Virus record (IMG/VR): IMGVR_UViG_3300027996_003878
Source of the DNA: a virus
Taxonomy: Duplodnaviria; Caudoviricetes
Reading direction: 5' to 3' (one strand)
DNA length: 64,000 nucleotides
In this document: positions 5,885 through 23,640 of the stretch, one piece after another
Layout: each line of letters opens with the position of its first letter
Numbering within the stretch: position 1 is the stretch's first letter
Program-made: the position numbers and the translations under genes
Notes under the pieces: model-generated
The model's database searches: none
Seen by the model: only the letters and a program-made list of their open reading frames with translations
Told to the model about the DNA's origin: nothing

Positions 5885-5966
5885 AATCAACCCCCTCCTT
5901 TCATATTACTAACATAACCACCCCAATGGCTTTGTCAAGGGATTCTTTTTTTTATAATTTAATAAT

Positions 5967-6257
5967 CTAATTACTTGCATTTAGAGCATTGTCAATAAAA
6001 TCCACCAGCTCTTTTGCTTGTCTTAAATCATTGGAAAATTCTTCGCATCGTAATGAATCAACCATCCACAATGAAGGCCAGCTAATACCAACCCTCCATG
6101 TTTTTCGCCAAGTAGAATATTGCGCCTTAACTTCTACTTGATTAAAATACCATAAAGCTGCATCTTCATATTTCTTTAAATTTGCATCTGCCAAATTTGC
6201 ATCTGCCCATATAAGATTAAAGCCATTAACCTTATCAATTAAATCCTTAATAGTCAT
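5967..6257 (-). CDS. hypothetical protein, paralog family A
   Basis: MTIKDLIDKVNG vs MTMKELIDRVNG; W..V.V.W.SL core. Confidence 0.75.
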   Translation of the reverse strand: MTIKDLIDKVNGFNLIWADANLADANLKKYEDAALWYFNQVEVKAQYSTWRKTWRVGISWPSLWMVDSLRCEEFSNDLRQAKELVDFIDNALNASN

Positions 6258-6447
6258 TGGCTAAAGCTATGCGCTCCCTTCGCCTTCTCGTGATTTAATT
6301 GCCTTAATTATTTAAATCATTATTATTTTATAAATTAAAATTACGATGAGATGAGAGGGCAAGAGAGCCATATATTGGACAGCAGCTATACAAAAGCTCA
6401 ACAATAACAATTAAGTCTTTTATTTTAAACAACAAAGGAAGATAATT

Positions 6448-6627
6448 ATGAATAAATCAAAAGTATGTTTTATCGCCAGCCTTGCATCCGTTGCGGCTTC
6501 AATTGGAATTTGGGTATACGCAGGAGGTCAGCTTGGTGACGCACACGCACACGCAGAGCGATGGGGACTCTTTGTGGGCTTATGGGCGCCTACGCTCATG
6601 GGTATGGAAAACCACTTGAAGAAATAA
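6448..6627 (+). CDS. small membrane protein (59 aa, not in ORF track)
   Basis: MNKSKVCFIASLASVAASIGIW...ERWGLFVGLWAPTLM; AAGGA SD; opposite strand to neighbours. Confidence 0.75.
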   Translation: MNKSKVCFIASLASVAASIGIWVYAGGQLGDAHAHAERWGLFVGLWAPTLMGMENHLKK

Positions 6628-6719
6628 TTAAAGATAATATTGATTAGGTAGTTATAATAAAGTGCCCCTGTCTGTATTCTTTAAATAAAAAGAAGGGCAG
6701 CGGGGCATCAGTATTATTT

Positions 6720-6947
6720 TCAATTGAACTCTCTTTTAATTACATTATTTACAGCGTTCTCAAGAGCTTTTGCAGGTGTAGGGCCGGTGCCTTCATAAAA
6801 ATCCTTCCAGCTGCTTGTAATATAAGCAATATAGCCAAGGTCTTTTGAACCATTGTTTGGCTTAATGTCCTTGATAGATATCCCCATATTTTTCAAATCT
6901 TCAATTGTTTGAGACATTACATCATCATCATTTATTTCAATTCTCAT
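6720..6947 (-). CDS. hypothetical protein
   Basis: 75-aa ORF with GGAG SD. Confidence 0.7.
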   Translation of the reverse strand: MRIEINDDDVMSQTIEDLKNMGISIKDIKPNNGSKDLGYIAYITSSWKDFYEGTGPTPAKALENAVNNVIKREFN

Positions 6948-6964
6948 AAATACTCCAGATTTTA

Positions 6965-7714
6965 TTAGTTTAGTTGTTTGACCTTTTCTTTACTAGAACC
7001 CGTCATTCCGCTGTGAAATTGAATGCTTCGTCCAGCTTTTCGACCAGCATTTCTTGCATTATTGTCGTGTGCATGTCCAGACGCGCGGTAGTTCTTTGCA
7101 TTCCCCACGAGACATTGCAGGACCTCATTTACGGAATCCATTCGATTATTTAAAAGAACCATAGCTGAAACTTTGCCTTCTTCTTTATATCGCGCCATTT
7201 CTTCATTCTTTGCATCTTGAAGCATTTTGCTTACACTTTCAACTGAACCATGCTTAAAGTTATTTGAAAAACTTTTACCAGAGCCAATGCCAGAAAGAAT
7301 TGCTTGCTTACACAGTCTTTCAATTTCGCGCTCGGCAAAAGAAAATAGGTAGCGGACAACTGCTACGTCCGACTTTCGACCAATAATCTGAATTTCGGCA
7401 TTCTGATTAAAAGAACGGTTGCCTTGGCGAATAACAACTTTACAATCGTTTGGATGAGCAATTCCAACCGCCAAAGAAACACGCCAATTAGAGATACTTT
7501 TTGAAGAATAAAGAGAAGAATCTCCTGCAAAGTACTGAGCTTCTTCATCTACGTTATTGTTAGCGGCCTCTAGTTCAGCTTGTTCAATGCGATGCTTGTC
7601 CATCAACCTTTGAGCTTGAGCCGCTGCGGTTGCTGCCTCTGCTTCTGTTGCACCCTTGCCTTCTGCTAGATTTAGAAGTTTTTGAATCTTTTCGATAATT
7701 GATTTATTGCTCAT
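6965..7714 (-). CDS. DUF2786 domain protein
   Basis: IIEKIQKLLNLAEGKGATEAEAATAAAQAQRLMDKH N-terminus with the typical C-terminal domain. Confidence 0.9.
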   Translation of the reverse strand: MSNKSIIEKIQKLLNLAEGKGATEAEAATAAAQAQRLMDKHRIEQAELEAANNNVDEEAQYFAGDSSLYSSKSISNWRVSLAVGIAHPNDCKVVIRQGNRSFNQNAEIQIIGRKSDVAVVRYLFSFAEREIERLCKQAILSGIGSGKSFSNNFKHGSVESVSKMLQDAKNEEMARYKEEGKVSAMVLLNNRMDSVNEVLQCLVGNAKNYRASGHAHDNNARNAGRKAGRSIQFHSGMTGSSKEKVKQLN

Positions 7715-7825
7715 TTGAATTTATTCCTAATCGTACATGTATGCGTGTAGAAGCATCAAGCTCAATACTAATGTAACCACTTATGACTTCTTGTCAACAT
7801 TAAAATTTACATATGTTTTGTTTGA

Positions 7826-7933
7826 TTATTTAAGATTTGCAATAACAACAAAGGCAACGATAAGGAGGAACCAAAACCAACCTCCGCCACCTTCTTCTTC
7901 AACCACTTCTTCAACAATAAATTTTTTACCCAT
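7826..7933 (-). CDS. small membrane peptide (35 aa)
   Basis: MGKKFIVEEVVEEEGGGGWFWFLLIVAFVVIANLK; AAGGA SD. Confidence 0.6.
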   Translation of the reverse strand: MGKKFIVEEVVEEEGGGGWFWFLLIVAFVVIANLK

Positions 7934-8138
7934 TTTTAATTCCTTTATAAAAGACAATAAGGCTCCCAACTTCCTTATTTAAGTGCGGCCTACGACAGCA
8001 CATGTAAATACGTACTTGCCACGCTTACGCAATCATAATCTTGGCTTCAATCAGCTCCCGGCGATCTGTCCAAGTATTATGATCCACACTCCCCACAATA
8101 TTATTATAATCACTTTTTAATAATTATCAAGTCTTTCT

Positions 8139-8813
8139 TTAAGCAACCATTGGCAATCGAACCACAAACCCGCTTTTATCCGTTTGTGCGCGTCCCTTTG
8201 CTTTAAGACCTACAATGCAGCCCTTGGGGTCTAGGAATCGAAGGTCGTCCTCATCCCCGCTTACTACGAGCTTTCCCCAATACTCTTTCGGCATCTCACC
8301 ACGAAAAACTACGGCTACATTGCCACCACGATCCAACCATTCTCTTGCTTGTTTTTGATTAAGTTCAGTTTCTGCGCGTGAAAAAGTAAGATGATAGTTA
8401 TCAGGAGCATGACGATCATTGTATTTTGTGTAATCGAAAAAAATCTGATCGGAAAACTTTTGAGGAATTCCAAAGGCCTCCCAAGGAATATCACTTGTTA
8501 GATTAAGACGAAATGCAGGAGTCAAACGCATTTTTCTTGCATGAATAATTGCCTTCTCAATATCAAATTCTAAAGTACGAAGAAACTCAGGAAGATCTTT
8601 CCAAAAGAATTGAGTCTTCCTTGAGCGTGACTTTTGAACATTAGGGTAACTGCCATTGCCAACAGTATTCAAGCAACTCCTTAGACAGCCTGAGGTGGCC
8701 CTGGCGCATACTTTACCAGGGAGCAAATGAAGGCCGAAGACAATATAGCCTCGATCACGGCCCTTCATGATTTTTTTGTTATTGGTTGTAAGTAGGTCAA
8801 ACATCTTGCTCAT
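8139..8813 (-). CDS. phage Gp88-like Cys-cluster protein
   Basis: C-x6-C-x3-C, RLNLTSDIPW, FFDYTK, NYHLTFS, GDEDDLRFLD, VGLKAKG motifs; ATG at promoter +1. Confidence 0.8.
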   Translation of the reverse strand: MSKMFDLLTTNNKKIMKGRDRGYIVFGLHLLPGKVCARATSGCLRSCLNTVGNGSYPNVQKSRSRKTQFFWKDLPEFLRTLEFDIEKAIIHARKMRLTPAFRLNLTSDIPWEAFGIPQKFSDQIFFDYTKYNDRHAPDNYHLTFSRAETELNQKQAREWLDRGGNVAVVFRGEMPKEYWGKLVVSGDEDDLRFLDPKGCIVGLKAKGRAQTDKSGFVVRLPMVA

Positions 8814-8865
8814 GATACTAACATAATCACCCATAAACCAATGTCAACCCTTTATCAGTCTTATT

Positions 8866-9237
8866 TTAATTTAGGAATTTAGTAAATTTCTTTTCGTGGG
8901 CTAGTTTGGTCAAGTAAAGAACCCAAAGTCGATTGCCATGAAAAAGAGCAACATGAGTGCCAAACGCATTGCTTGAGCTTACATGTCCGTCACTTGTTAG
9001 TTCGTCAAAGTTATTTTTTACTTTAGTAATAATAGATTTGACTTGGCGATCATTAACTTCTTTTGCTTCTAGCTCATAGCCGCGATCTTTTGAAGCCTCA
9101 TCAGCGTGCTTTGAAGCATAGCGGTGATTTCCAGAGCACCCACAACAACAACACCCCCTACATCCACTGTACACACTTCGGACATCATTCACACTAATTG
9201 AATTAAGAATGTTGTTAGTCAATTTAATTTGCGACAT
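8866..9237 (-). CDS. Cys-rich hypothetical protein
   Basis: VYSGCRGCCCGCSGNHRY motif. Confidence 0.75.
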   Translation of the reverse strand: MSQIKLTNNILNSISVNDVRSVYSGCRGCCCCGCSGNHRYASKHADEASKDRGYELEAKEVNDRQVKSIITKVKNNFDELTSDGHVSSSNAFGTHVALFHGNRLWVLYLTKLAHEKKFTKFLN

Positions 9238-9348
9238 AATATTTACCCAATCTTAAAAATTGCCAATGAGGTATATTGCAACCTCAACATACTACTAATA
9301 TAATCATCCACTACAGGCAGTCAAGGGGTTATTTTGATAAAGTTTTAT

Positions 9349-9903
9349 TTAATTATTTTGTTCTTTTACTCGTTCAGAAAAACGATCCATAAGTTTTTTA
9401 GTTGCGCTGAACACTGCATCTGCAATGTCTTTATCTACTGAGTCATAAACACTAATGTATTCATTTAATTGATCTTCTAACGCTTGATTTCCTACCTCCC
9501 TTACCGCCTCTCGAAAGCAATACCATTCAAAAGAATCAAGGGCCAACCAAGCCTTCATTACTTGAGCAGCCTCCTCTCCCCATGGATGCTCAGAGCCATA
9601 GCGCTTTGCCCATTCAGAATCACTTTCAAGCATCTCTTTATGATCTTCTAAGGTTAAAAATTCATAATACTCAAATGCTTCTTTGATTAAATCAATAGAA
9701 GGATTGTGTTGAATATTACAAAGCTCAGGGCTTGCGCCAGGACAATTCCCTGTATTATCAAGAAGGTAAAACAATCCTGCAATACAAGACTTTGCTAGCT
9801 CACATTCTCTCCCTCCTTTTCGCTGCTTTTCGCTGCTTATGTGCTTGATATTTACAAACAATCTCCTTAACTGCACTATTGGACTTGGTAGGTATGCCAT
9901 CAA
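9349..9903 (-). CDS. hypothetical protein
   Basis: 184-aa ORF. Confidence 0.65.
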   Translation of the reverse strand: MMAYLPSPIVQLRRLFVNIKHISSEKQRKGGRECELAKSCIAGLFYLLDNTGNCPGASPELCNIQHNPSIDLIKEAFEYYEFLTLEDHKEMLESDSEWAKRYGSEHPWGEEAAQVMKAWLALDSFEWYCFREAVREVGNQALEDQLNEYISVYDSVDKDIADAVFSATKKLMDRFSERVKEQNN

Positions 9904-9961
9904 CTCGCCAATTATTAAATAGTTCTAAATTTGTGCTTGACTTTGACATTGCTTTAATTGC

Positions 9962-10381
9962 TTAGGAGGTTTTTTCTGAATCATGAAACCAATCAGCCGG
10001 AAGAGTATAGCAAGTTACCCCATCTTCTTCTTGATTATCTAGATCTCCTGCACCCGGAATACAGGGAGAACATTTTCTTGCTTGAGTAGTATGCGGTGAC
10101 TCAAAAACCCAAACCAAAGGAGCGCCCCCTAAGTAAGACATTCCCAGCTTCATATCATTAGTAGTTAGACCATACTCATCCTCTTCGCCTAGCCAGTTTT
10201 CGGCAAATTCCTGCTCATCTTCGTCCGTTGCATCAGGATTTTCATTTCTCCAATCAGTTAAGGCTGCGGCATAACTTAGATTTTCTCCGTAATTAAAAAA
10301 TTCTTCGAACACCCAATCTTTTAGATTATTAAGAGCAACAACACCATAAGCAATTCCAGTTTCGGGGTTATAATTAGGCAT
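9962..10381 (-). CDS. acidic hypothetical phage protein
   Basis: 139-aa ORF behind promoter 10448-10475; CSPCIPGAGDLD motif. Confidence 0.75.
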   Translation of the reverse strand: MPNYNPETGIAYGVVALNNLKDWVFEEFFNYGENLSYAAALTDWRNENPDATDEDEQEFAENWLGEEDEYGLTTNDMKLGMSYLGGAPLVWVFESPHTTQARKCSPCIPGAGDLDNQEEDGVTCYTLPADWFHDSEKTS

Positions 10382-10531
10382 CTTTATCTTCTTTCACTTT
10401 TAGAATAATAATTACAAACCGCGATTAGCGCTGCGGACTGTGATACTAATATAATCACCCATAACTGCCTGTCAATGGGTTTTTAAGAATAATACAGATC
10501 TATATCTATGTAGAACGATGATTCTATTTTA

Positions 10532-10813
10532 TTAGAACGGCCATTCTACTTTTGTAATCTTTTTGAATCCGCTTCTGGTTGTGTTAAGCAGCCCAAGCTT
10601 TTCAACAACACTTTCCGGGGTGGCTCCAGGCTTAGACATTTCACTCTGCCAAACGGGACTGGCCTCTAACGCCGAGGCTAAGATCTCTACAGCTCCAGGC
10701 TGCTCCAAATCCCTTCGCATTTGATTTTGGTCGCGCATAGTTTTGGCGACTTTATAAGCAAAACCACCAATGAGCAACTTGCCGGCCCAATCTATTTTGT
10801 AATCTTTAAACAT
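10532..10813 (-). CDS. hypothetical protein
   Basis: 93-aa ORF. Confidence 0.65.
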   Translation of the reverse strand: MFKDYKIDWAGKLLIGGFAYKVAKTMRDQNQMRRDLEQPGAVEILASALEASPVWQSEMSKPGATPESVVEKLGLLNTTRSGFKKITKVEWPF

Positions 10814-10879
10814 TTTTTTGCCTCTTTCAAGATTAAAAGCAGCATATCTTTGAAAGAATAGATATAACTAATTATATAG

Positions 10880-10952
10880 GCCAATGTAGCTCAATAGGCA
10901 GAGCAGGACATTTGTAATGTCAAGGTTGTAGGTTCGATTCCTATCATTGGCT
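10880..10952 (+). tRNA. tRNA-Thr(UGU)
   Basis: Acceptor GCCAATG/CATTGGC, anticodon loop TT TGT AA, GGTTCGATTCC T-arm; CCA not encoded. Confidence 0.93.
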
Positions 10953-10962
10953 CTACTTTTAT

Positions 10963-11286
10963 TTATTCAGCTAATTCTTCTTTAATTTTTTTCGCAAATG
11001 TTGTTGCGAGTTTTAAATTATTTGAAAAGATGGATGCTTGTTCTGGATTGATTGGCTCTAGATCTAACCAATCAACAGAAACATTCCACTTTTGTTCGTT
11101 ATAATCATATGCCGCTGTTACTTCAATTTGGGGAGTAAAGTACCAAGTCATTGCAGTACGATGTCTACCAAGCCCCATATCTGTATAAGGAACTTTCCAT
11201 GAATCCACTGTATCTTTTAAAGTAAGAAGAGTATGCATGGATAACGAAACTTTAAACGATTTTGCTACTTTTTGAAGCTTGCTCAT
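10963..11286 (-). CDS. paralog family A protein with shared N-terminal leader
   Basis: C-terminal WYF..IEV..Y...W.V.V.W core like 5591 and 5967; N-terminus KVAKSFKVSL. Confidence 0.75.
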   Translation of the reverse strand: MSKLQKVAKSFKVSLSMHTLLTLKDTVDSWKVPYTDMGLGRHRTAMTWYFTPQIEVTAAYDYNEQKWNVSVDWLDLEPINPEQASIFSNNLKLATTFAKKIKEELAE

Positions 11287-11323
11287 GTTTATTATATTAT
11301 TTTATTGAGCGTAATAGTTAAAT

Positions 11324-11629
11324 CTAATCATTACCCGCAGTGCCGTATGTATCAATCCAATCTAGAAAATCTTCCACAGGGGTTTCTGGAAGAGCCCCAA
11401 CACGCATTGAGCCATAACGTCGATAGCAATTGTATAGCCTCCCCTCACCGTCTTCAAACGTCCACTGACACTCATCATAGCCCTTGTCAGGAGCAACCCA
11501 CCCATCCAATGAAGGCTGAAAGAATGTTTCAACAATGGACTGCTGTTTTGAAGAAAGAATATTTCTTAGCGCTAATCCAATTATGTTTGCGTTTTTGATT
11601 AGCTTGTATTTTTGTGTCGTGTCGGTCAT
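11324..11629 (-). CDS. hypothetical protein (leaderless start)
   Basis: ATG 7 nt after -10 box; track extension MSDYISI is the promoter. Confidence 0.7.
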   Translation of the reverse strand: MTDTTQKYKLIKNANIIGLALRNILSSKQQSIVETFFQPSLDGWVAPDKGYDECQWTFEDGEGRLYNCYRRYGSMRVGALPETPVEDFLDWIDTYGTAGND

Positions 11630-11678
11630 GATACTAATATAATCACTCACTAGAGCGTGCCAATATAAAACACATATT

Positions 11679-11754
11679 TGGTAGGGCGAGAGGGATTCGA
11701 ACCCTCACTTTAAGGGTTTTAAGCCCTCTTCCTCTGCCGTTGGGATACCGCCCC
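11679..11754 (-). tRNA. tRNA-Leu(UAA) with short variable loop
   Basis: GGGGCGG/TCGCCCT-A-CCA, GAGGG CT TAA AA CCCTT, variable region only AAAGT. Confidence 0.9.
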
Positions 11755-11816
11755 ATATTATTATTTTACGTTAATTGCAGTTGCAGCTTTGAGCAAAGCA
11801 TATGCCAACTCTTCTG

Positions 11817-11853
11817 CTGAGCCTGCTGCGTATACCAATTTCGCCATATCCGC
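11817..11853 (-). pseudogene. orphan 5' half of tRNA-Leu(CAG)
   Basis: GCGGATATGGCGAAATTGGTATACGCAGCAGGCTCAG matches a tRNA-Leu 5' half up to the anticodon; no complementary 3' half follows. Confidence 0.55.
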
Positions 11854-11894
11854 ATATATTGCTTTCTTAATTATTTAATTTATCTCTCAATTTG

Positions 11895-12216
11895 CTCCGG
11901 CTGTTGGACTCGAACCAACGACCTAGTGGTTACTTACTACTACAGCTTTCACTGCCACAAAAGTGTTTGTAGTCTGGACTATATCATCACCCTCGGCTTT
12001 ACGTTAGGGTGTCCGGCGCTAATGTGGTAATTAAGAGGACTTTACCTCTCCACTAGCCTCTGCACCTTCCAGCGGTGTACTGCTGGCTTGGCTCAGGATT
12101 AGCATATCTGCCACGCAAACTTAGCCTTCCCTGAATTCACCGGATTTACATCATAAAGTTTCCTCCATGAGCTGCTAACTCACAGCCACTTGCTCTACCA
12201 ACTGAGCTAAGCCGGA
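11895..12216 (-). tRNA. tRNA-Asn(GUU) split by group I intron at 35/36
   Basis: Exon1 12216-12182 ends AGTGGCTGT; exon2 11932-11895 begins TAACCACT; spliced loop CT GTT AA. Confidence 0.92.
11933..12181 (-). mobile_element. group I intron (249 nt, no ORF)
   Basis: P AATTCAGGGAA, Q AATCCTGAGC, R CAGAGGCTA, S GATATAGTCC; follows U, ends in G. Confidence 0.92.
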
Positions 12217-12435
12217 ATGGTGTGCCTCTAGCTACAATAACCAACTTAGCTATCTTGCATGTCGGAGGCACACTTAATTTTATTTAACAAAAAAACTTCT
12301 CTCGAAATAATTAATATGTGGGCTTAAAAATAACTATTTGATAAAATATTAATAATTACAAAGCCATCACAAACGTCTTGTAATTGTTCGTGTAATATAA
12401 TCATGTCGATACAAAGGTCAACATCTTCTTGCTTG

Positions 12436-12765
12436 CTACCTTAAGCTCTTGGTTGGAATCACCGCAACAGCGCCAACGATAGGTTTTCCAGCCAAAATCG
12501 TTGCAACTAGATTAATCCTAAGTCGTTTTAGCAGGCCCTCTTCGTTCACGATCATCATAAAATCATTATCTTCTTTCACAGGAACAAGCTCAATTAGACC
12601 GCCCACAGCATTCTGAAGTACTTTCAAGCCGTAAGAGCCATCATCATTATCAGGCAACATTTCTGTTACGCCAATGGCTTTGGTCGCATCTTGAAAGAAC
12701 TCATCAGGGCTTGTCTCTGGGCTAATCCTAAGTCCGTGTGCGTATGTGCGGCTAGTTGCTTCCAT
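12436..12765 (-). CDS. DUF3846-like protein
   Basis: LQNAVGGLIELV, MIVNEEGLL, N..AT.LAG.PIVG motifs. Confidence 0.8.
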   Translation of the reverse strand: MEATSRTYAHGLRISPETSPDEFFQDATKAIGVTEMLPDNDDGSYGLKVLQNAVGGLIELVPVKEDNDFMMIVNEEGLLKRLRINLVATILAGKPIVGAVAVIPTKSLR

Positions 12766-12770
12766 TGTGA

Positions 12771-12920
12771 TTACTTTAAATTCTTTTTTCTGTTTAACAA
12801 AAACTGCTTAACGGTAATATCTTCTTGTTTAAATTGTTTTACCGCATATTTAAATTGCTTTGACTTTCCTGTAAATATAAAGCCGTTGTTGTAAATATTT
12901 AAAATAGCTTGATTTGTCAT
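12771..12920 (-). CDS. MciZ-like peptide (49 aa, not in ORF track), candidate FtsZ inhibitor
   Basis: MTNQAILNIYNNGFIFTGKSKQFKYAVKQFKQEDITVKQFLLNRKKNLK; ATGA overlap with upstream stop; pattern resembles Bacillus MciZ. Confidence 0.5.
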   Translation of the reverse strand: MTNQAILNIYNNGFIFTGKSKQFKYAVKQFKQEDITVKQFLLNRKKNLK

Positions 12921-13153
12921 TCTTCCATCTTATACAGGACGTGCTTTAGGTCAACTTTTTGCCATTTATCAGGAACTCCCCATCCTTCAGGAAGAGGCTC
13001 GCAGCATGAAAACTTCCCTGACAATTCATTGGGTGAACATTTTATACATTGAACGTAAATATCACCATAATGATTGGTTGAAATCCATGCAACATAACCG
13101 CAGCTATTGCACTTATATCGCTTTGCTTTAATCTTGCCAGTTTTTTTAATCAC
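12917..13153 (-). CDS. zinc-ribbon hypothetical protein
   Basis: CNSC...CIKC...CC. Confidence 0.7.
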   Translation of the reverse strand: MIKKTGKIKAKRYKCNSCGYVAWISTNHYGDIYVQCIKCSPNELSGKFSCCEPLPEGWGVPDKWQKVDLKHVLYKMEE

Positions 13154-13350: not shown

Positions 13351-13367
13351 TTCAACATCCTCTCATT

Positions 13368-13607
13368 TTAACGAATTACGATCCAGCCACCCTTGGACTC
13401 TACGTAACAAGTTCCCACATTTGAGTAAATACAACAATAAACGCGACGCCACCTATTGTTATCAGGTAATTTAACCATTTTAGAAGTTGGAATCTTCTTG
13501 CCATACCCGGTCCTTGTGTAACTAAGGCCTTTTTCTTGCCACCAAAGAGGCTCTTCCTTGCTTTCGAGTTCAGACAAGTCGTATCGCTTAATAATGTTCT
13601 TCTTCAT
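13368..13607 (-). CDS. hypothetical phage protein (leaderless start)
   Basis: ATG at promoter +1; WWQ..GLS.T.TGYG.KIPT, RWRRVYC..YSN.GT motifs. Confidence 0.75.
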   Translation of the reverse strand: MKKNIIKRYDLSELESKEEPLWWQEKGLSYTRTGYGKKIPTSKMVKLPDNNRWRRVYCCIYSNVGTCYVESKGGWIVIR

Positions 13608-13666
13608 AATACTAATATAATCACTCACTGGGTGGCGTCAAGTGTTACCGCTAAAATATTTTATTA

Positions 13667-13942
13667 TTAAAGGATACGTTTTTCTTTTCGTCCATGCAGT
13701 TCAGGGAAATGAACCTTCCATGTTTTTCCTGTTTTTAAATCAGTGGCAAGCGTATCCCACACCCCGTCTGGATTATCGCCGGATTGCCCTGGTATAGCCG
13801 AGCAATAACGACAACTGCATCGATCATCGTCTGCCCCATGGCCAAACTCGCTCTTAGGTAGAGGATTAAAGCCCGTGTTATTAAAGACACAAGCGTAGGA
13901 TACACCGTCAACAACTTTTGGCTCTAGCTTCATTTTTTTCAT
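13667..13942 (-). CDS. hypothetical zinc-binding protein
   Basis: Likely start MKKMKLEPK; CSCRYC motif. Confidence 0.65.
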   Translation of the reverse strand: MKKMKLEPKVVDGVSYACVFNNTGFNPLPKSEFGHGADDDRCSCRYCSAIPGQSGDNPDGVWDTLATDLKTGKTWKVHFPELHGRKEKRIL

Positions 13943-13943
13943 C

Positions 13944-14150
13944 CTAACAAGTGAATTGAACAAAAGACTCATCTTTAAGCTGCTCTTGAAGATGATCAAT
14001 AATACAATCAATGCTCTCAAGCGTCTCTTTAATAGTAAACTTCTTCTTGGCCTTTTGCCACTCAATAATTTGATCTTTAAGATCTTGAATCCGCTCTTGC
14101 TTCATAGCATCGACCAAACAGGCTAGTGGTTTTGTTGTCTTTATCATCAT
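13944..14150 (-). CDS. hypothetical protein (leaderless start)
   Basis: ATG 7 nt after -10 box. Confidence 0.7.
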   Translation of the reverse strand: MMIKTTKPLACLVDAMKQERIQDLKDQIIEWQKAKKKFTIKETLESIDCIIDHLQEQLKDESFVQFTC

Positions 14151-14220
14151 GATACTAATATAATCACTCACGCATACGTGTCAATAGTGTACGTGCTCTT
14201 TTTTCTTAATATTAAATTTG

Positions 14221-14818: not shown

Positions 14819-15208
14819 TCATTTAATTACCTCAACCTCTTCGCCTTTTTCATTAACGTAAACAAGGCGTGATGCATTCTTAGAGCACGGGAACAAGCAG
14901 CCGCCATAGACTGGGTTTGAAAAATAACCCATCAAGCTGGTTAGGGGCTTTGCCGTACCGCTCTTGTCGAGTCGCGCTTTCTTTACTGTCGCCTTCATAC
15001 TACTAATATAACCACCATGAAGGATGGCGCAAGGGCAATTTCTGACAAAAAACTCTATGAAGTATTTCTCGCCGCTTTGAAGGTGCTCCACACAGGCGGA
15101 GGTTTCCTCATCTCGAAGGCGACTGAGAAAAACTCGTAGGGCCGCCTCCGGTGAACTTGCCTTTATTTCGTCAGTTAATTGAACTTGGTATGTTTCTTCT
15201 GCTTCCAT
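14819..15208 (-). CDS. hypothetical ORF containing an internal promoter; 14819-14998 is a probable separate leaderless gene
   Basis: GGYISSM in the ORF is the promoter motif read in frame. Confidence 0.6.
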   Translation of the reverse strand: MEAEETYQVQLTDEIKASSPEAALRVFLSRLRDEETSACVEHLQSGEKYFIEFFVRNCPCAILHGGYISSMKATVKKARLDKSGTAKPLTSLMGYFSNPVYGGCLFPCSKNASRLVYVNEKGEEVEVIK

Positions 15209-15308
15209 TATTTACACTCCAGCCAGTTGTCCCCATACTTGCTCGACGTTTCCAAGGGAACCGCCAAGTCAAAGTCAAAGGGGTGCATCTTTATTGTTTT
15301 AAAAGTTT

Positions 15309-15801: not shown

Positions 15802-16389
15802 TCACCCAATCAATGATGTCAACACCCAGCCGCCTTCTTTTTTCTTTGGCAGGTGATTTCGCAAGCTAAAGAAAAGCTCACAAATCTCAAGGGCATCATT
15901 TTGTTGTTTTGTTAGTTTTGTGCAGTCAATATGGCCTTTTTCATTTTTAAAGGTTTCTACAATAACATCGGCAAGGCAGTTCTTTGGCTCAAATGAAATA
16001 AAGTTCTCGCTGCAATAATCAAGAAGTTTGCAATCAAGACGAAGCATGTAATATCGAACGCTTTGAACTTCCCAGCTTTTTCCTGTTTTAGCAAGAACTC
16101 CAAAAGGCTTCCCAGGAACATCATCGTAATCGAAATAAACCCCTACTCCTTTTTCTTGCTTATATACAACTTGACCCTCCATGTCGCCGCCTTCATAGTC
16201 CATGGCAACCAAGCAATTTTCAACTTTAGCAAAAGCCTCATTGCATCGGTCAAGTTTACGCTGATAAGCATCGCTCCTTGGCCTCGTTGACCATGCGCTC
16301 GACCGACCGCTGAACCTGTAACAATAGACAGGGCCACGAAGGGTTTTGACAGGCCGAGTTTTTCGCAGTGTATAGATGTATGTTCCCAT
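15802..16389 (-). CDS. hypothetical protein
   Basis: AAGGAG SD; promoter 16410-16437; stop codon lies inside the next promoter. Confidence 0.75.
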   Translation of the reverse strand: MGTYIYTLRKTRPVKTLRGPVYCYRFSGRSSAWSTRPRSDAYQRKLDRCNEAFAKVENCLVAMDYEGGDMEGQVVYKQEKGVGVYFDYDDVPGKPFGVLAKTGKSWEVQSVRYYMLRLDCKLLDYCSENFISFEPKNCLADVIVETFKNEKGHIDCTKLTKQQNDALEICELFFSLRNHLPKKKEGGWVLTSLIG

Positions 16390-16466
16390 AGTGCTCTCCT
16401 TACACTACTAATATAATCACTACATGCCCTGCGTCAATCCCATTATTGCTTTTTTCTTATTATTAA

Positions 16467-16658
16467 TTAAAAAGCTTTTGACCTCACATGCAGGCTTAAT
16501 TCGTTTAAATTTACAGATGTTTTAATTACTTGATTATTAAGGTTAACCCAAACATTAACCTCTTTGTTAATCATAGAATTAAAAATTTCTTTGGCGGAAA
16601 GAAATGCCAATCCAATATTAGAGCCCCAATTAGGATGCCCAACTTCAACCCATTTCAT
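16467..16658 (-). CDS. hypothetical protein
   Basis: AGGAGG SD; promoter 16696-16724. Confidence 0.65.
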   Translation of the reverse strand: MKWVEVGHPNWGSNIGLAFLSAKEIFNSMINKEVNVWVNLNNQVIKTSVNLNELSLHVRSKAF

Positions 16659-16743
16659 TATTATTTCTGCCTCCTGTGCAGATCAATATAGTATAAACAT
16701 AATCACTTTAATGCAAAAAGTCAAGATAATATAAAATGCTTAT

Positions 16744-16944
16744 TTAATCTGATCCTTCTTCGTCAGATACAATATTGTAACAATTGCAATTTTTAAATTG
16801 AGATGATTCGCCGCTTATCTCTTTTAATTCAATAATTACAGGCTCTCCCTGCCTCTCACACTCTTCATGAACAATCCTTCCAAATTGAACGGCATTTGAT
16901 TGTACCCAAGAGCCGTTCTTCCATGCCACATATATAATCCACAT
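16744..16944 (-). CDS. hypothetical protein
   Basis: 66-aa ORF. Confidence 0.55.
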   Translation of the reverse strand: MWIIYVAWKNGSWVQSNAVQFGRIVHEECERQGEPVIIELKEISGESSQFKNCNCYNIVSDEEGSD

Positions 16945-17053
16945 AATAAGTCCAATTATAATAATTAATAAGAAGTCTTGCTTTAAGGTAATCTTGCATT
17001 AACTGTATATTAAATTATTATAATTGAATCTTATATTTATATTTTACGAATAA

Positions 17054-17215
17054 TCACTCTAACCTGTAAACAATGTCGCTTGTAATCCGCCTCACGGCTT
17101 GAAGTTTTTCTGAGACGAATTTTACATCATTGGGCTGATTCTCTTCAAGAAGAACCAGCATGTTAAAGAGATCTTCATGTATTTGATTATACAATGTTCG
17201 AATATCTGATTTCAT
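17054..17215 (-). CDS. small hypothetical protein (53 aa)
   Basis: Manual translation MKSDIRTLYNQIHEDLFNML... Confidence 0.5.
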   Translation of the reverse strand: MKSDIRTLYNQIHEDLFNMLVLLEENQPNDVKFVSEKLQAVRRITSDIVYRLE

Positions 17216-17302
17216 TTAATAACCTATTAAAGATTTATTTATAAACATATCACTTGCGCTTGGTACCCTCGGCAGGATTCGAACCTGCGACCATCGGCTT
17301 AG

Positions 17303-17970
17303 CATACTAACTACAGCTTTCGCTGCCAGCCGAAGCTGTTTGTAGTCTGGACTATCTCTTCACCATTTCAGGCGCAGCACGTATAGTCTCTACGGAACCT
17401 CACGATAATCAGAAGCTAAGTTTACACTTTTCTTTTGATTATTCTTTGGAGTCTCTACCCTAAGCGTAACGCTTTTTCCAAAATCAGATGGGTTAAGATA
17501 GTAACAATTATCAGTCTGAGGACAGTAGATACAATAGATGTCTATAAAAGATTTATCTACTGGCACTGTATGAGTGCCGTTTTTATCTGTCCAACAAGAA
17601 CTGAACTTAACTTCTAATCTACCATTAGAAGCATCACGATACTTAACCTGAACAGTTTTAAACTGTCCATCTTTCCATAGAACCAAATCAAATGGCGCAT
17701 GTTCTGTTTCTGGACTAAGTGTTAAGTAACCTTTCTGAAAAAGGTCACACTTAGCCTTTAAGACTCCTAGATCACCCTTGTTTTTAGTATGATGATTTAT
17801 CATGGTGGCATTATTTTACCATAAGATCAACATACGGATTAATCGTAAGTTTCCACGGGATTGTCATCAGCACTACCTGTTAAGAGTTCCCCGTTATGGT
17901 GCTGTCCGTTTTATAGGTTTCTGTTTTCCTATAAAGGCTCCTATGTAGCAGCAGAGTTGCTGCAATGCTA
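17303..17970 (-). mobile_element. group I intron (668 nt) with homing endonuclease ORF
   Basis: P ATAACGGGGAA, Q GACAATCCCGTGG, R GTAGAGACTA, S GAGATAGTCC; terminal G; 3' end nearly identical to the tRNA-Asn intron. Confidence 0.92.
17390..17803 (-). CDS. group I intron-associated PD-(D/E)XK homing endonuclease (PDDEXK_5, I-Ssp6803I-like)
   Basis: KGDLG..., PFDLV, TVQVKY, DIYCIYCP motifs; located inside the intron. Confidence 0.88.
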   Translation of the reverse strand: MINHHTKNKGDLGVLKAKCDLFQKGYLTLSPETEHAPFDLVLWKDGQFKTVQVKYRDASNGRLEVKFSSCWTDKNGTHTVPVDKSFIDIYCIYCPQTDNCYYLNPSDFGKSVTLRVETPKNNQKKSVNLASDYREVP

Positions 17971-18092
17971 AAGGCCACTGCTCTATCCGGCTGAGCTACG
18001 AGGGCGTGATTTTTTTTGATTTCCTTCCTTTCAATTGCTCTCGACAAATCAAGATTTAAGAAAAAGACCTGTCTAAGTTATTAAATTTACTT

Positions 18093-18341
18093 CTAAACTT
18101 TATAATTAAATGGCGGTTGAACATTCGCCCACTTAAAAAAAGCATCCATCCAACATGTGTGTCCAGGCATTTTATCCCAAGTCACATTTACTTCTTTAAA
18201 TTCTTCCTTCGTTAGCACCTTTTCAATAAAGCCAAGCACTCCAGGACCAAAGCCATGCTCATCAGCAAAGTCTTCGCTCATCTTTTTTGCAGTTAAGATG
18301 ATTTCTTCAACCCTCTTGTTCTTTACAATCACCTGCATCAT
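18093..18341 (-). CDS. hypothetical protein
   Basis: 82-aa ORF overlapping the upstream stop. Confidence 0.65.
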   Translation of the reverse strand: MMQVIVKNKRVEEIILTAKKMSEDFADEHGFGPGVLGFIEKVLTKEEFKEVNVTWDKMPGHTCWMDAFFKWANVQPPFNYKV

Positions 18342-18583
18342 TCCTGCTCACTTTCTTCCTTGCGCAATTCAGACCAATCCGCCCACGCGCTCAAAAGCGG
18401 CTCTTCTTGCTCAATCGAATCAAAAGACCACATGTCAATAGAAATGCCGTCACCGTTTACGAGAATACCTACATCGCCAGACACTTTACCATCGGGGCTT
18501 GTTACTTTTATCCAAACTCGACCGCCCTCGCTCTCAGATAGCTTGTACTCGTAAGCAGAAACTTTTTCAATTTTACAGCTCAT
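18338..18583 (-). CDS. hypothetical protein
   Basis: True start MSCKIEK after GGAGG; promoter 18601-18628. Confidence 0.7.
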   Translation of the reverse strand: MSCKIEKVSAYEYKLSESEGGRVWIKVTSPDGKVSGDVGILVNGDGISIDMWSFDSIEQEEPLLSAWADWSELRKEESEQE

Positions 18584-18654
18584 TTTTCCTCCGTAATACC
18601 AACATAACCATACAAGTACAGATGTCAAGCTCTATAATGCATTGCTCTATAACT

Positions 18655-18864
18655 TTATTTTGAAATTGGCGCTTTTACGCAATGTCCTTTTTCGCATTTA
18701 AGATTAACTTTTGCGCAAACAATCCCGGCTCCAGGAATAAATTGATACGTTTTAAAGTGCCAGTCCTTCACCTCATTTGGAAATACACACACGTCCGCAG
18801 TTACCGCTTGTGACTTAGAACCCGCACACCCGCACACAAGTAGCGCTATAGCTATGCCCCTCAT
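18655..18864 (-). CDS. putative small lipoprotein
   Basis: MRGIAIALLVCGC signal with lipobox-like Cys. Confidence 0.65.
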   Translation of the reverse strand: MRGIAIALLVCGCAGSKSQAVTADVCVFPNEVKDWHFKTYQFIPGAGIVCAKVNLKCEKGHCVKAPISK

Positions 18865-18873
18865 AATAAACTC

Positions 18874-19068
18874 CTAAACTAGATAATTAGGTACTTTTTT
18901 CCAAAACTCACAAACAACTTGCTTTTTCTTTACATCCATCGACTTAGCAATCTCACTGTTTAAAAACAACTCCCATGCTTCTGATTGGTAATCAGCTCGA
19001 ATGTAAAACCCACCAACGTCACTTGCTTTTTGACTTCCGCTGATAATTGCAAACCTATATTCATTCAT
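18874..19068 (-). CDS. hypothetical protein
   Basis: 64-aa ORF. Confidence 0.6.
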   Translation of the reverse strand: MNEYRFAIISGSQKASDVGGFYIRADYQSEAWELFLNSEIAKSMDVKKKQVVCEFWKKVPNYLV

Positions 19069-19141
19069 AGTAAAACTCTTGTCTTTGATTAAAATGTTTA
19101 AGGGCGAGGGGGCGAGCTTAACCCGCCCCCAGGGTTATGCT

Positions 19142-19435
19142 CTAATCATCACCCCACTCTTCAATAACTTCATTGTGATTTTCGTCTAGCTCCATAACCA
19201 CATCCGGCCTCACAAACGTCTTGTTGTAGTCAATCTCGGGCTCATATTCAGGATCGATTGAAAGATTTCGCCCATCGCTTAGTCGAATGTTCAGAGTTCC
19301 CCATTTTACATAAAAACCCTCCACATCTTTCGCCCAAGAAAATTTATGATCTTCTTCGAGCTTTTGAACATCCCACTCAACATTCACACTGTACTTCGCG
19401 TTTAAAAACATCACTTGACGATTTTTCGCATTCAT
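19142..19435 (-). CDS. hypothetical protein
   Basis: 97-aa ORF followed by a GC-rich hairpin near 19107-19131. Confidence 0.7.
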   Translation of the reverse strand: MNAKNRQVMFLNAKYSVNVEWDVQKLEEDHKFSWAKDVEGFYVKWGTLNIRLSDGRNLSIDPEYEPEIDYNKTFVRPDVVMELDENHNEVIEEWGDD

Positions 19436-19445
19436 AATAAACCTC

Positions 19446-19745
19446 TTAACTTTGGGCGATTTTAACCAATTGATTAGAATGTTTGAGGGCGATCTTTCTA
19501 GCTCGCTCCAAATGATGTCCCGTCAAGTGCCGACCGCTTTCTACCCACTTAGCATAATAACCGCCCTTTCTCGCAGCCCAAGAGCAAAAGCCTTTGTTGT
19601 TGCTGTGGCGCGTCTGGTCGTCTCGCTGCTCATCCTCCGTCTGCAACTTGAACAGAGCAACCATAGCCCGCTCAACAGCTCGGGAGGATGTATGCAACAA
19701 AGTATCAATCTTGTCTCGGGTCCAGGTGGTTTCTGTCTTGTTCAT
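19446..19745 (-). CDS. hypothetical phage protein (leaderless start)
   Basis: ATG at promoter +1; QTEDEQ..., HSNNKGF motif. Confidence 0.8.
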   Translation of the reverse strand: MNKTETTWTRDKIDTLLHTSSRAVERAMVALFKLQTEDEQRDDQTRHSNNKGFCSWAARKGGYYAKWVESGRHLTGHHLERARKIALKHSNQLVKIAQS

Positions 19746-19795
19746 GATACTAATATAACCACCCAGACCCCTCCGTCAACCCCTTTGATTGGGAA

Positions 19796-20224
19796 TTATT
19801 CTTTTAGATTAACAAACATTTTCGCGCGCCCACAATGAACAAACATGCGAACTTCTTTTGCCTCATAAACTGGTTTAAGAAGATCTCTGGTAACAAAACT
19901 TTCAAATTTATAAGGATTGTACGTGACTTCTACCCAATCTTTATCTTTTAACAATTCCTCAAATGTTTTAAAAGTTGTTTCTGGGCCAACTTCATTCCAT
20001 TTAAAACGTTTCCCACGCACAAACGCATGAACGTTCTTTACTTTTTCTTTAAGTACTTTCTTCCTTCCAGCGGGTTGAACTGCGAACTTAACATCTCTTA
20101 AATTCACAACTCGCGAATGGTCCACAACTCGACCACGCTCAGGGCCAGACAAAGCACGAACCGAATAAGTATCTTTATGCAGATTCCAGTAAACTTCTAC
20201 GCGCGCACTCATGGCTAACTCCAT
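19796..20224 (-). CDS. conserved hypothetical phage protein
   Basis: VEVYWNLHK..YSV, KEKVKNVHAFV, VTYNPYK motifs. Confidence 0.8.
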   Translation of the reverse strand: MELAMSARVEVYWNLHKDTYSVRALSGPERGRVVDHSRVVNLRDVKFAVQPAGRKKVLKEKVKNVHAFVRGKRFKWNEVGPETTFKTFEELLKDKDWVEVTYNPYKFESFVTRDLLKPVYEAKEVRMFVHCGRAKMFVNLKE

Positions 20225-20640
20225 TCTATATGAGTAAAATCATTCTCTTTTGCCCAATCAACCAAATTAGACAACAAGTTAATCTTTTCAATCAAGTAGT
20301 TTTCATCAATTCCATGCTCAACCATACGCACAGGACGCATCTCAATCACACCATCTCGCATGCATGGCTTTCCATGAACAATTTTTTGCTTACGCACATG
20401 CTTGGATAGATGGTTCGTATTGTTTGATTTAATCTTTGCCCGGTTAATAAGAGCCATCATCTCAGAAAGACTCAACTCACCACAAAGATCTTCTGAATCA
20501 ATATCCAAGCTCGCAAGCACACGCCTACAGTTGGAATTTGCCAAGTTAAGCTCTTTCTCATCTGAAGAGCGAAAAATCTCCCAATCACGAACCTTACGGA
20601 CAACAACTTTTTTGTCAATTGCTTTAAACACAACGCTCAT
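20215..20640 (-). CDS. hypothetical protein
   Basis: 141-aa ORF in operon. Confidence 0.7.
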   Translation of the reverse strand: MSVVFKAIDKKVVVRKVRDWEIFRSSDEKELNLANSNCRRVLASLDIDSEDLCGELSLSEMMALINRAKIKSNNTNHLSKHVRKQKIVHGKPCMRDGVIEMRPVRMVEHGIDENYLIEKINLLSNLVDWAKENDFTHIEWS

Positions 20641-20652
20641 AACTATACCCCC

Positions 20653-20889
20653 TCACACATCATCGAATTCATCTTGAGCATCTAGAAACTCATACTCACG
20701 TGTGTATGACTCAGGCTTACACTCATTCTCCACAATTGAGTAATAACAACTACCATGAGCCCTATACTTCGCCTTGGATTGAACCGCCTCCGAAAAGCTA
20801 TCAATTGGACCATCAATTGCCTCAGCAGATTGAATCCCCCGAACCATGCCAAGAATAGCATCATCACGCTTCTTCATTATCCAATACAT
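20653..20889 (-). CDS. hypothetical protein
   Basis: Promoter 20908-20935; AAGGGG SD. Confidence 0.7.
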   Translation of the reverse strand: MYWIMKKRDDAILGMVRGIQSAEAIDGPIDSFSEAVQSKAKYRAHGSCYYSIVENECKPESYTREYEFLDAQDEFDDV

Positions 20890-20980
20890 TGCTGCCCCTT
20901 CAAAACTAATATAACCACTTTGGATAGTGAGTCAAGGTGCGTGCAGGCCTTTTTACCCACACGCACCCACATGTTCTCAA

Positions 20981-21694
20981 TTAAACAACTTCTACTCGCT
21001 CCAAACCACCCAGCTTAATGATAGGCTTTTGCTCATCCAACAAAGTCAAAGTAACGAACCGACTCACAGGCAGACGCTTACGCATCAACTTCTTCGCAAT
21101 TACTTTTGCGCTTGACTTGCTTGGAGGTACAGGACCGTTTTTTGCTGGAATAATAACTTTCTGGGAGATCATTAGTCCAGACAAGTAGATCGAACCAGGG
21201 ACAGGCGCCTTTCGATCTTCTGGATTGCACTCTCGGCATCCACAATCATCCGACAAGTCAGAGGTGCAAAGGTAAACTTTTGAACCACGAACAACTTTAT
21301 CGTCAACAATTAGTTGTTCAAAAACATGATCGTGAGTTGCCTTGTTTTCTCCGCGTGAACTCAACACCAAAGACTCACGCAATTCTTCTCGGGCAAGAAG
21401 AACATCCTCAACCCCAACAAGCTCACCTGTTTTTGAATCACGAAGATCACGCTCATGTGCTTCCGTAAGAATCTCCGAATTAGAAAGATTGTCCAGAACT
21501 TTGACGGACCTCTCACAAAGCGAGAGGTAAGAGAATCCGGTAATCATGATGATCTTGCTGCGATCATCTCCAAAGATCTTCTTGCTTTCTCCCCTTCCTC
21601 TTGGCTTTCCTTTCTTTGTGTATTCGACGCTTGTAAACACAGCGCCTTTGGCCTGATTCGAAATGTAATCTTCAAGTTTCATTAGATCGGGCAT
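20981..21694 (-). CDS. hypothetical protein
   Basis: 237 aa; AGGAAG SD; promoter 21743-21770. Confidence 0.75.
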   Translation of the reverse strand: MPDLMKLEDYISNQAKGAVFTSVEYTKKGKPRGRGESKKIFGDDRSKIIMITGFSYLSLCERSVKVLDNLSNSEILTEAHERDLRDSKTGELVGVEDVLLAREELRESLVLSSRGENKATHDHVFEQLIVDDKVVRGSKVYLCTSDLSDDCGCRECNPEDRKAPVPGSIYLSGLMISQKVIIPAKNGPVPPSKSSAKVIAKKLMRKRLPVSRFVTLTLLDEQKPIIKLGGLERVEVV

Positions 21695-21939
21695 GGTTGA
21701 CTTCCTTTCTTGTTATGACCGTTTGCTCCCGGTCACAATACTAATATAATCACTCAAGCCGACCTGTCAACCGATCCGTCAAAAAAAACCAAACCAATAC
21801 GCACGCATGTTTTTGATTGAGAAAAAAAACTCAGCCTTTGAACACTGGACAAGTCCTCACACGCGCGCATATTAAAACAGCCCTAAGAGCCCTCGGAGGT
21901 TTTCTTTGATTAACATCTTGTTCTTCTTTTTGTCAGGAC

Positions 21940-22200
21940 AAGTCCCGCAACCTTTCTCCTTTTTTTTCTTTGAAAGAAAGAAAGAAAGAAAGAAAGAAAG
22001 AACCTACCTTTTTCTCAAAGAAAAAGAATTCCTTTTTTCTTTGAAAAAAAGAAAGAACCTTCTACTCCTTTTTTTTCTTTGAAAAAAAAAGAAGGTATTG
22101 GAAAACTACGTTTTCCAACCTCGCCCTGACACACACATGTGCGTCAGCCCTTTTTGCTGATTAAAAAAAAGGCAAAAAAAATTAAACAAAAAAAAAGACA
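21940..22200 (+). repeat. low-complexity A/T tracts and (GAAA)n microsatellite with repeated TTTTTTCTTTGAAA units
   Basis: Seen directly in the sequence. Confidence 0.85.
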
Positions 22201-22237
22201 AAAAAAAAGCTCCCCGCCGTAGCGGGGAGCTTTTTTC
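22201..22237. terminator. bidirectional intrinsic terminator
   Basis: AAAAAAAAGCTCCCCGC-CGTA-GCGGGGAGCTTTTTT. Confidence 0.9.
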
Positions 22238-23323
22238 TTATTCGAGCATTGATTCGAGGATGTTGGAGCCAAGCTGCTCCGACTCGACGCCCGCCTCGGT
22301 TGCCTCGGGCACGCTCATGTACTCGCTCGTTCCATCGGCCAACATGACCTCGACCAGGTATTCCACTGTTTCGAGGTGCTGGGCTGCCTTGGCAGCCCGC
22401 GACCCATACATGGCCTCCAGCCGGGTCGTGCCTTTACGGGTGCCTCGCTCGCTGCCGTCCACGTGCCTGTCTAGCAGGAACGTGGCTGCATTCCAAAGCG
22501 TAGCAAGGTTCTGACCGTCCCCGATTCTATTGATCGGATTGGCCATGGCTTGCTCGAACTCAGTCACGCGCTTATGATATCGCGTGACCGCGTTTTTTGA
22601 AGCGTCCTCGCCAACTGGCGAGATGAACGTATCGAATGCCGTACGCGCTTGCGTCCACGTCAGGCGCTTGCTTGTCGTTTCGAGCAACGCTGCCATACTG
22701 CCGCCTTCAGCGACGATCTTGGGCAGCGCATCCTTAATCGCACGGACCTTGCCATCAAGCCCGCGAGTATGTTTGATCTTGGCCCATTCCGCGCCATCTT
22801 GGTCAAGCGCGGCTTTGAGCGTGTTTGCGCACACGACTCGGATCGACGTGCCGCCCATGCAAAGGCGCAGCGAGCCGTCGAAGCTATCGGCAATGGTTAG
22901 GTACTGATGTACCCCGCCGATCTCTCCAAGGGAAAAGACGGCAACCTGGCGCTTGCCGTCGTGCAAGCTGAACATGCCAGCCGGCTTGGCTCCGGCCAAG
23001 GTGGCAGCTATGCAAAGCTGCCGGAAGTCTTCAGGAAGGAGCGGGTTATACCGCGCCCCATTAAGACCCACCACAATGGGCGGGGCGGTGTCGTAAAGCG
23101 CAATTAGCGCTTTTTTGTCATCGGCTTGGATCTCCAAGCCGCCATCGGTCACAAAGACCGGCGTGTGAACTTCCAACGCGGTAGCTACCGCGTTGAGTCT
23201 TGTGCCATGGGTGAACATCTGCTCGCCTGTCTGGCACTCCTCGTCTGGAATTAGGGTTTCAGCGCCGTGCCACGTCCGGCCAGAAGATTCGACGAAAAAA
23301 CCACGATTGAAACATGCAGGCAT
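22238..23323 (-). CDS. DUF932 family protein (GC-rich gene)
   Basis: WHG, AGMFSLHDGKR, YLTIADSFDGS, TSIRVVCANTL, TLWNA motifs; start MPACF after GGAG SD; tandem promoters upstream. Confidence 0.85.
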   Translation of the reverse strand: MPACFNRGFFVESSGRTWHGAETLIPDEECQTGEQMFTHGTRLNAVATALEVHTPVFVTDGGLEIQADDKKALIALYDTAPPIVVGLNGARYNPLLPEDFRQLCIAATLAGAKPAGMFSLHDGKRQVAVFSLGEIGGVHQYLTIADSFDGSLRLCMGGTSIRVVCANTLKAALDQDGAEWAKIKHTRGLDGKVRAIKDALPKIVAEGGSMAALLETTSKRLTWTQARTAFDTFISPVGEDASKNAVTRYHKRVTEFEQAMANPINRIGDGQNLATLWNAATFLLDRHVDGSERGTRKGTTRLEAMYGSRAAKAAQHLETVEYLVEVMLADGTSEYMSVPEATEAGVESEQLGSNILESMLE

Positions 23324-23640
23324 AATTGACTTCTCCAATATTTTTTGGAATCGGACTGTCCGACTCACTACTAATGTAATCACGCTACTTGGAACGTCAA
23401 GGACTTTTGTTTAATCCTTGTTTTGTCTCGCCCCGTTCACATTGTTAATATAATCACGCTGCTCCCCTTGTCAATTATTCAAACGAAAAAAAGCCCGTTT
23501 TGCCGCTTTTTTCCAAAAAGCGCCGAAAACTGACAAAAAAGGAAAGAAAGCGCCAGATCCCGCGAGTTTCTGAGAAAAGCTCCCGGCAATATTGCGCGCC
23601 CGCTCCGCGTGGCCCCGGCAAAACCCCACTTATGGCTCAA

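Follow-up and report, generated by a model that had tools for sequence, protein, structure and literature searches.

An early promoter repeated in an uncultured marine phage and the genes that it may express without a leader

The tailed virus recorded as IMGVR_UViG_3300027996_003878 (Duplodnaviria; Caudoviricetes) is represented here by 64,000 nucleotides (nt) of DNA, called the window, in which small genes on the minus strand occupy about 2.7–23.5 kb. A sigma-70-type promoter is repeated throughout this early region. At six of its copies, the ATG of a gene begins exactly 7 nt after the −10 box, at the predicted start of transcription, and there is only a 6-nt discriminator between the −10 box and the ATG, with no Shine–Dalgarno (SD) sequence. 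The explanation we favor, with a probability of roughly 0.68, is that six early transcription units (seven when a second strain, L046, is included) yield mRNAs that begin with AUG and would be translated without a leader. The six genes start at 19745, 14998, 14150, 13607, 11629, and 8813 and are 99, 59, 68, 79, 101, and 224 codons long, respectively. Strain L046 is a contig from ENA that is syntenic with the window and 92–98% identical to it, and what is said below of strain differences is a comparison of these two strains. Every promoter copy, protein gene, and short reading frame of the early region that is described here lies on the minus strand. Few of the early genes match a family, and the families matched (DUF932, DUF2786/DUF7168, and GP88) are all of unknown function.

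The promoter cassette and its register with ATG

The repeat has the form TTGACA-N16-TATATT, with the core GTGATTATATTAGTAT. In its full layout, an A/T-rich upstream stretch is followed by the −35 box TTGACA, a 16-nt spacer that ends in TGRT, the −10 box TATATT, and the 6-nt discriminator AGTAT(C/T). Copies were defined by the −35 box, the spacer end, and the −10 box only; the bases 3′ of the −10 box were ignored. By this definition, the 64 kb contain 20 copies, all of which fall between 2737 and 23440, and an additional copy with a 17-nt spacer lies at 16689. The 20 copies match TTGACA-N16-TATATT at 9–11 of 12 positions, and all of them have a pyrimidine at the sixth base and a purine at the seventh base after the −10 box. 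The best explanation of the pattern is that about 20 near-identical promoters, predicted to be strong and of the sigma-70 type, would drive the early region.

A preliminary description of the window had named eleven sites, with −10 boxes reading TATATT, TATGTT, or TATAAT, at which a start codon falls 7 nt after the −10 box. This register is exact at all eleven, the coordinate being the first base of the ATG or GTG on the minus strand. ATG fills offset 7 in 8 of the 20 copies, compared to its background frequency of 0.022 (binomial p = 5e-9, a value that overstates independence because the promoter copies are related), and ATG is absent at offsets 1–4, 6, 8, and 9. The claim that the genes at these sites have no room for an SD sequence stands for the six genes named above and fails for the sites at 5904, 9290, 8096, 21736, and 23440, which open mini-open reading frames (ORFs). 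In the same way, the division of the early genes into two initiation classes is supported by the leader lengths, which are 0 nt or no less than 11 nt, and the leaderless class comprises six genes, not eleven.

Could the start codon at +1 be kept for the sake of transcription? The bases at +1 to +3 are RTG in 11 of the 20 copies, and five of these 11 are not gene starts and open just 5–23 codons. Such counts speak for a conserved initially transcribed sequence with the consensus RTG, whose use as a start codon would be incidental or partial. This reading is very unlikely. The ATG is in frame and continuous with the only sizeable ORF downstream in six of the eight ATG copies, and homologues confirm three of the N-termini. 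In addition, the six gene-opening sites all have ATG and the three GTG sites are all non-genic, a pattern indicative of selection on translation and in keeping with the preference of leaderless initiation for AUG. In Escherichia coli, GUG is poorly used on leaderless mRNA, and AUG is preferred (reviewed in PMC9031893).

The expected transcription start is the purine that forms the seventh base after the −10 box. In the N25 promoter of phage T5, the string TATAATAGATTCAT spans −12 to +2, which places the start at an A that is the seventh base after the −10 box (PMC7472727). The shortest leadered copies in the window bear on the same point. At 18583 the sequence is ACGGAGGAAAA and then ATG, at 20889 it is GAAGGGGCAGCA and then ATG, and at 16389 it is GTAAGGAGAGCACT and then ATG. 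Since the SD sequence would lie at +2 or +3 in these copies, the start must be at or before the seventh base. What matched in two metatranscriptome runs and in one possible RNA run was limited to tRNA-like fragments of other organisms and low-depth variant pieces, with no readable 5′ ends.

When leaders are counted from the seventh base, their lengths fall into two groups. Six are 0 nt long. Those of 11, 12, 14, 14, 20, 31, and 32 nt carry GGAGG, AAGGGG, AAGGAG, AAGGAGG, or AGGAGG, as had been reported for most of the other copies, and the rest measure 42, 43, 49, 53, 60, and 163 nt. None of the copies has a leader of 1–10 nt, a gap that is expected from two initiation modes and not from mere compaction. 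An SD-like run is found in most leadered copies; it is missing before the gene at 9237 and weak before the gene at 10381. The predicted folding of the first 40 nt also separates the groups. The mean minimum free energy is −1.6 kcal/mol for the six predicted leaderless mRNAs, compared to −5.2 for the leadered 5′ ends, −5.1 for background 40-mers, and −3.0 for other gene starts, and five of the six leaderless candidates leave the AUG unpaired. Several leadered early transcripts have stable 5′-terminal hairpins (21713–21736, 23330–23366, 10400–10441, and 12350–12387, minus strand; −6.6 to −11 kcal/mol in the first 40 nt), which may protect the 5′ end.

In the proposed mechanism, host RNA polymerase would initiate at the seventh-base purine. 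In six units this purine is the A of the gene's ATG, so the mRNA would begin with AUG, and we infer that a host ribosome would bind this 5′-terminal AUG directly, without SD pairing. The remaining units would have a leader of 11 nt or more, mostly with an SD-like run. The leaderless gene would be the first cistron of its unit, and later cistrons would be translated by means of an SD sequence or by coupling. On transcripts that read through from upstream promoters, the same ATG would be internal and without an SD sequence. This means that the output of the six genes should follow the firing of their own promoters.

The six candidate genes and the five other sites

Alignments with homologues appear to fix the ATG as the N-terminus for the genes at 8813, 11629, and 19745, and nearly so for the gene at 13607. 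The largest of them (8139..8813) codes for 224 amino acids (aa) of the GP88 family (PF17338), behind a promoter copy at 8820..8847 with the −10 box TATGTT. The Pfam GP88 model aligns from residue 8, and when the protein is aligned with 13 homologues, their Met1 falls at its Met1 or Met4. The 101-aa candidate (11324..11629) follows a promoter copy at 11636..11663 that has the −35 box TTGGCA and begins just after a tRNA-Leu; its homologues, at 59–64% identity, begin within 1–2 residues of the same point. The 99-aa candidate (19446..19745; phrog_21015) is preceded by a copy at 19752..19779 with the −35 box TTGACG, a 16-nt spacer, and the −10 box TATATT. Its ATG is the earliest possible start codon of the ORF, residue 4 of the protein aligns to position 5 of the PHROG profile, and its ratio of non-synonymous to synonymous polymorphism (pN/pS) against L046 is 0.08. 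The 79-aa candidate (13368..13607; phrog_3436) lies behind a copy with a perfect core (13614..13641) and has homologues in 336 phage records. Its best-match alignments begin at residue 4–9 and its PHROG alignment at residue 7.

The candidate at 13944..14150 (68 aa), also behind a copy with a perfect core (14157..14184), is an ORFan whose only matches are 99%-identical copies of the same phage. For the 59-aa candidate at 14819..14998, homologues were not found. Its promoter copy (15005..15032), with the weak −35 box TTGCGC, lies within a 129-codon ORF (14819–15208) that begins at an SD-led ATG at 15208 and would give 129 aa in total. In the window, the candidate is fused in frame to this upstream gene: the SD-led part (14999..15208) lacks a stop codon, and its reading frame continues across the promoter into the 59-aa ORF. 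Residues 1–58 match a family of stand-alone proteins of 61–66 aa that end in CQTGE, and at that point the window ORF has promoter-encoded residues and then the 59-aa ORF. The upstream part has lost its own tail and stop codon. In L046, the 59-aa ORF stands alone, preceded by a different 61-aa gene and with an in-frame stop 16 codons ahead of its ATG, which shows it to be a module in its own right. The window arrangement would allow it to be produced in two ways, as part of the fusion and independently, from its own promoter.

Some measures take in several of the candidates. The 14998 ORF has 2 synonymous and 5 non-synonymous changes relative to L046, and the pooled pN/pS of the six ORFs is 0.32, compared to 0.22 for the other early genes. 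The PHROGs gave no match for the proteins of 14998, 14150, and 11629 or for the extra genes of L046. A downstream in-frame start with an SD sequence is found in none of the six ORFs.

Gene callers had chosen other starts for three of these genes. The public calls are 231, 108, and 75 aa for the genes at 8813, 11629, and 14150, with the start at an in-frame GTG or ATG 21 nt upstream, inside the promoter, so that the promoter-like sequence would be coding. An upstream start is barely credible and was rejected on four grounds. There is no such start for 19745, no SD sequence precedes the upstream start, the extension is the same promoter-encoded heptapeptide in unrelated proteins, and homologues are without it. 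For example, the GP88 homologues (214–219 aa) do not have the 7-residue extension, which occurs only in the copy from this same phage. The GP88 relatives at 58–69% identity are found in tightly packed operons with no promoter in front and are silent on the conservation of the leaderless form.

At two of the five sites that are not gene starts, a 5′-terminal ATG opens a short upstream ORF (uORF). The uORF at 5887..5904, of 5 codons, covers the SD sequence AAGGAGG and ends 2 nt short of the gene that starts at 5884; the one at 9243..9290, of 15 codons, ends 5 nt short of the gene at 9237, which has no SD sequence. Both lengths are kept in L046. The closeness of the uORF ends to the main ATG suggests termination–reinitiation coupling. 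The other three sites have GTG at +1. The one at 8025..8096 runs for 23 codons, and the gene (35 aa) starts at 7933 behind AAAGGAA, with a leader of 163 nt from the promoter at 8096. The product of this gene (ORF 7826–7933) has an acidic N-terminus, a Gly run, and a hydrophobic tail and looks like a small membrane peptide. The GTG at 21713..21736 opens 7 codons inside a 5′ hairpin, and the gene starts at 21694 behind AAAGGAAG. At 23411..23440, 9 codons are followed by a second promoter and then by the DUF932 gene at 23323 behind TGGAGAAG.

Strain differences, a related lineage, and read-through

All six promoter–ATG junctions are kept in L046, with C or T at −1. That strain has a seventh junction, at L046:10564. 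Here the ATG at +1 begins a frame of 108 codons, and its stop codon overlaps the ATG of the next ORF; the junction lies in a GC-rich two-gene insert bounded by two promoter copies. L046 also has an extra 140-aa gene inserted before the GP88 promoter, and a segment replaced between the strains ends at the upstream edge of the 14998 promoter. In coordinates, the differences are at 15040–15290, 13602–13675, and 8809–8850 of the window versus 8838–9130, 10569–11179, and 15966–16437 of L046. Since the large differences begin or end at promoter copies, the promoter with its ATG looks like a recombination joint. Two further polymorphisms were seen. The segment 17302–17971 is absent from L046, where the alignment jumps from 17971 to 17302. 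Both L046 and one metagenome contig have about 30 other bases in place of about 116 nt that overlap the tRNA-Leu(UAA), at 11703–11820 of the window.

Any physiological purpose of the arrangement is a matter for conjecture. The preliminary description suggested that leaderless genes might go on being translated during host shut-off or toxin activation, an idea that the sequence neither favors nor opposes. Another proposal is that the promoter and ATG form a portable expression joint: any ORF recombined at the ATG would gain transcription and translation signals at once, and this would explain strain-specific gene gain and loss exactly at the joints. The leaderless class would, in addition, be separately switchable and would go off as a putative phage IF3 accumulates, because excess IF3 inhibits leaderless initiation; raised IF3 is known to inhibit leaderless translation in E. 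coli (PMC9031893). As a whole, the proposal is quite unlikely. It would give the initiation factors encoded by phages a concrete job, and if a link to a phage-encoded IF3 and bS21 were true, the puzzle of why huge phages have translation-initiation genes would become testable.

A related marine lineage, seen in contigs from ENA and JGI (L037–L045), has three early genes in common with this phage at 55–64% identity. Its cassette, placed before almost every small early gene, consists of TGTGYAAG-N13-TGTGG, then TATAAT, AGATWC, and the leader ATCTTCAACGAAAGGAA. It is identical to T5 N25 over −12 to +2, the same 14-mer TATAATAGATTCAT, and a conserved leader with AAAGGAA follows. Among roughly 15 distinct cassettes seen in this lineage, none is leaderless. 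There, the 11629 homologue is preceded by a leader of 45 nt that includes an SD-like run, and so leaderlessness is not a property of the gene itself. With none of the cassettes seen in the relatives leaderless, the arrangement is specific to the lineage of this phage.

The phage is marine and uncultured; at least half of the sampled words from a 10-kb stretch of the window are present in 19 seawater or marine DNA runs. A search for the promoter pattern in IMG/VR gave no match, and a nucleotide search of a phage collection with the window returned a tRNA as the sole match. Two single-copy pattern matches in JGI metagenome contigs, without other similarity, were put down to chance. The phage carries genes for asd, isocitrate lyase, and malate synthase (window 26205–27344 and 47263–50920). 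An attempt to trace the host from the phage asd was set aside, as its matches at about 60% identity are spread over many phyla, the top one being a Polyangia metagenome-assembled genome, and no host can be named.

Several points weigh against leaderless initiation at the six genes. The start sites are predicted, and the capacity of the host for leaderless translation is an assumption. Terminators in the window are as scarce as chance would have them (16 found, 16.3 expected), and therefore read-through transcripts with these ATGs internal must exist. Many other genes are without an SD sequence (for example, those at 12765, 11286, 6257, and 5348), which makes SD-independent internal initiation possible in this phage. 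Neither the gene at 14150 nor that at 14998 has a homologue beyond this phage, and both have too few substitutions to show independent coding. The true start of the 8813 gene could be Met4, which would give a 9-nt leader. Finally, part of the ATG excess may have been inherited with the cassette, given how many copies have RTG at +1.

The main rival explanation takes up some of these points. It holds that promoter and ATG came to adjoin as a side effect of cassette recombination and genome compaction, that SD-independent internal initiation on long read-through transcripts supplies most of the protein, and that a 5′-terminal AUG is unimportant. The chance frequency of terminators and the many internal genes without an SD sequence agree with it, as do the strain differences that begin and end at promoter copies and the in-frame fusion of the 14998 ORF to an upstream SD-led gene. 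It is unlikely all the same, since it leaves unexplained both the absence of 1–10 nt leaders and the same exact register of seven different genes. Besides, the cassette of the relatives has its own SD leader, so that selection is clearly on initiation signals. The sequence GGTGAT or AGTGAT within the promoter was considered as an SD for read-through transcripts and discarded; at 12 nt, its distance from the ATG is too great for that part of the anti-SD, and it is untranscribed from the gene's own promoter. Initiation at a 5′-terminal AUG thus continues to be the preferred reading for the six genes.

Comparison with known systems

With one cassette followed in some copies by a start codon at +1 and in others by a minimal SD leader, the early region comes close to offering the two initiation modes as a natural matched pair. 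The analysis also corrects gene starts, as automatic callers had added seven promoter-encoded residues to three genes, and it locates strain-level gene gain and loss at promoter copies.

Leaderless mRNAs with a 5′-terminal AUG are familiar from the cI gene of phage lambda, expressed from PRM, and from Actinobacteria, Deinococcus, and Caulobacter, which have many. Such genes are typically recognized by a −10 box that lies only a few bases upstream of the AUG. The six candidates resemble known leaderless genes (PMC9031893) in having the −10 box 6 nt before the start, no 5′ untranslated region (UTR), no SD sequence, strictly AUG, and an unstructured 5′ end. They differ in that one cassette is reused for six or seven unrelated phage early genes, beside SD-led copies, and in that the starts are predicted here. 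As for jumbo phages with mapped start sites, phiKZ has no leaderless transcripts (PMC8244752), and the UTRs of AR9 are 26–491 nt long (PMC5312081).

The early promoters of the T5 N25 type are similar in their −10 box, 6-nt discriminator (AGATTC or AGTATC), and A at +1, and T5, too, has many tandem strong promoters that read one strand of the early region. However, N25 transcripts have an SD leader, whereas six copies here have the gene's ATG at +1. The cassette described here also differs from N25 in its −35 box TTGACA and its fixed 16-nt spacer, and its TG is one base further upstream than in the classical extended −10. The sites at 5904 and 9290 are comparable to the 5′-terminal AUGs on SD-containing mRNAs of E. 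coli (Beck, Fleming and Janssen 2016, as cited in PMC9031893), in that an ATG at the predicted +1 of a leadered mRNA opens a short uORF just before the real start. Unlike in the E. coli case, the uORFs here end 2 and 5 nt before the main ATG.

The T4-type phages have mobile promoter cassettes, in which promoter-early stem-loops mediate modular shuffling. The likeness, which is one by description, is that repeated early promoters border strain-specific insertions or replacements. The differences are that the joint here reaches the start codon itself and that there is no associated stem-loop. Leaderless initiation as such is already known; what the phage adds is a tidy new example, in which one cassette is found in two initiation modes and also has an apparent role as a recombination joint.

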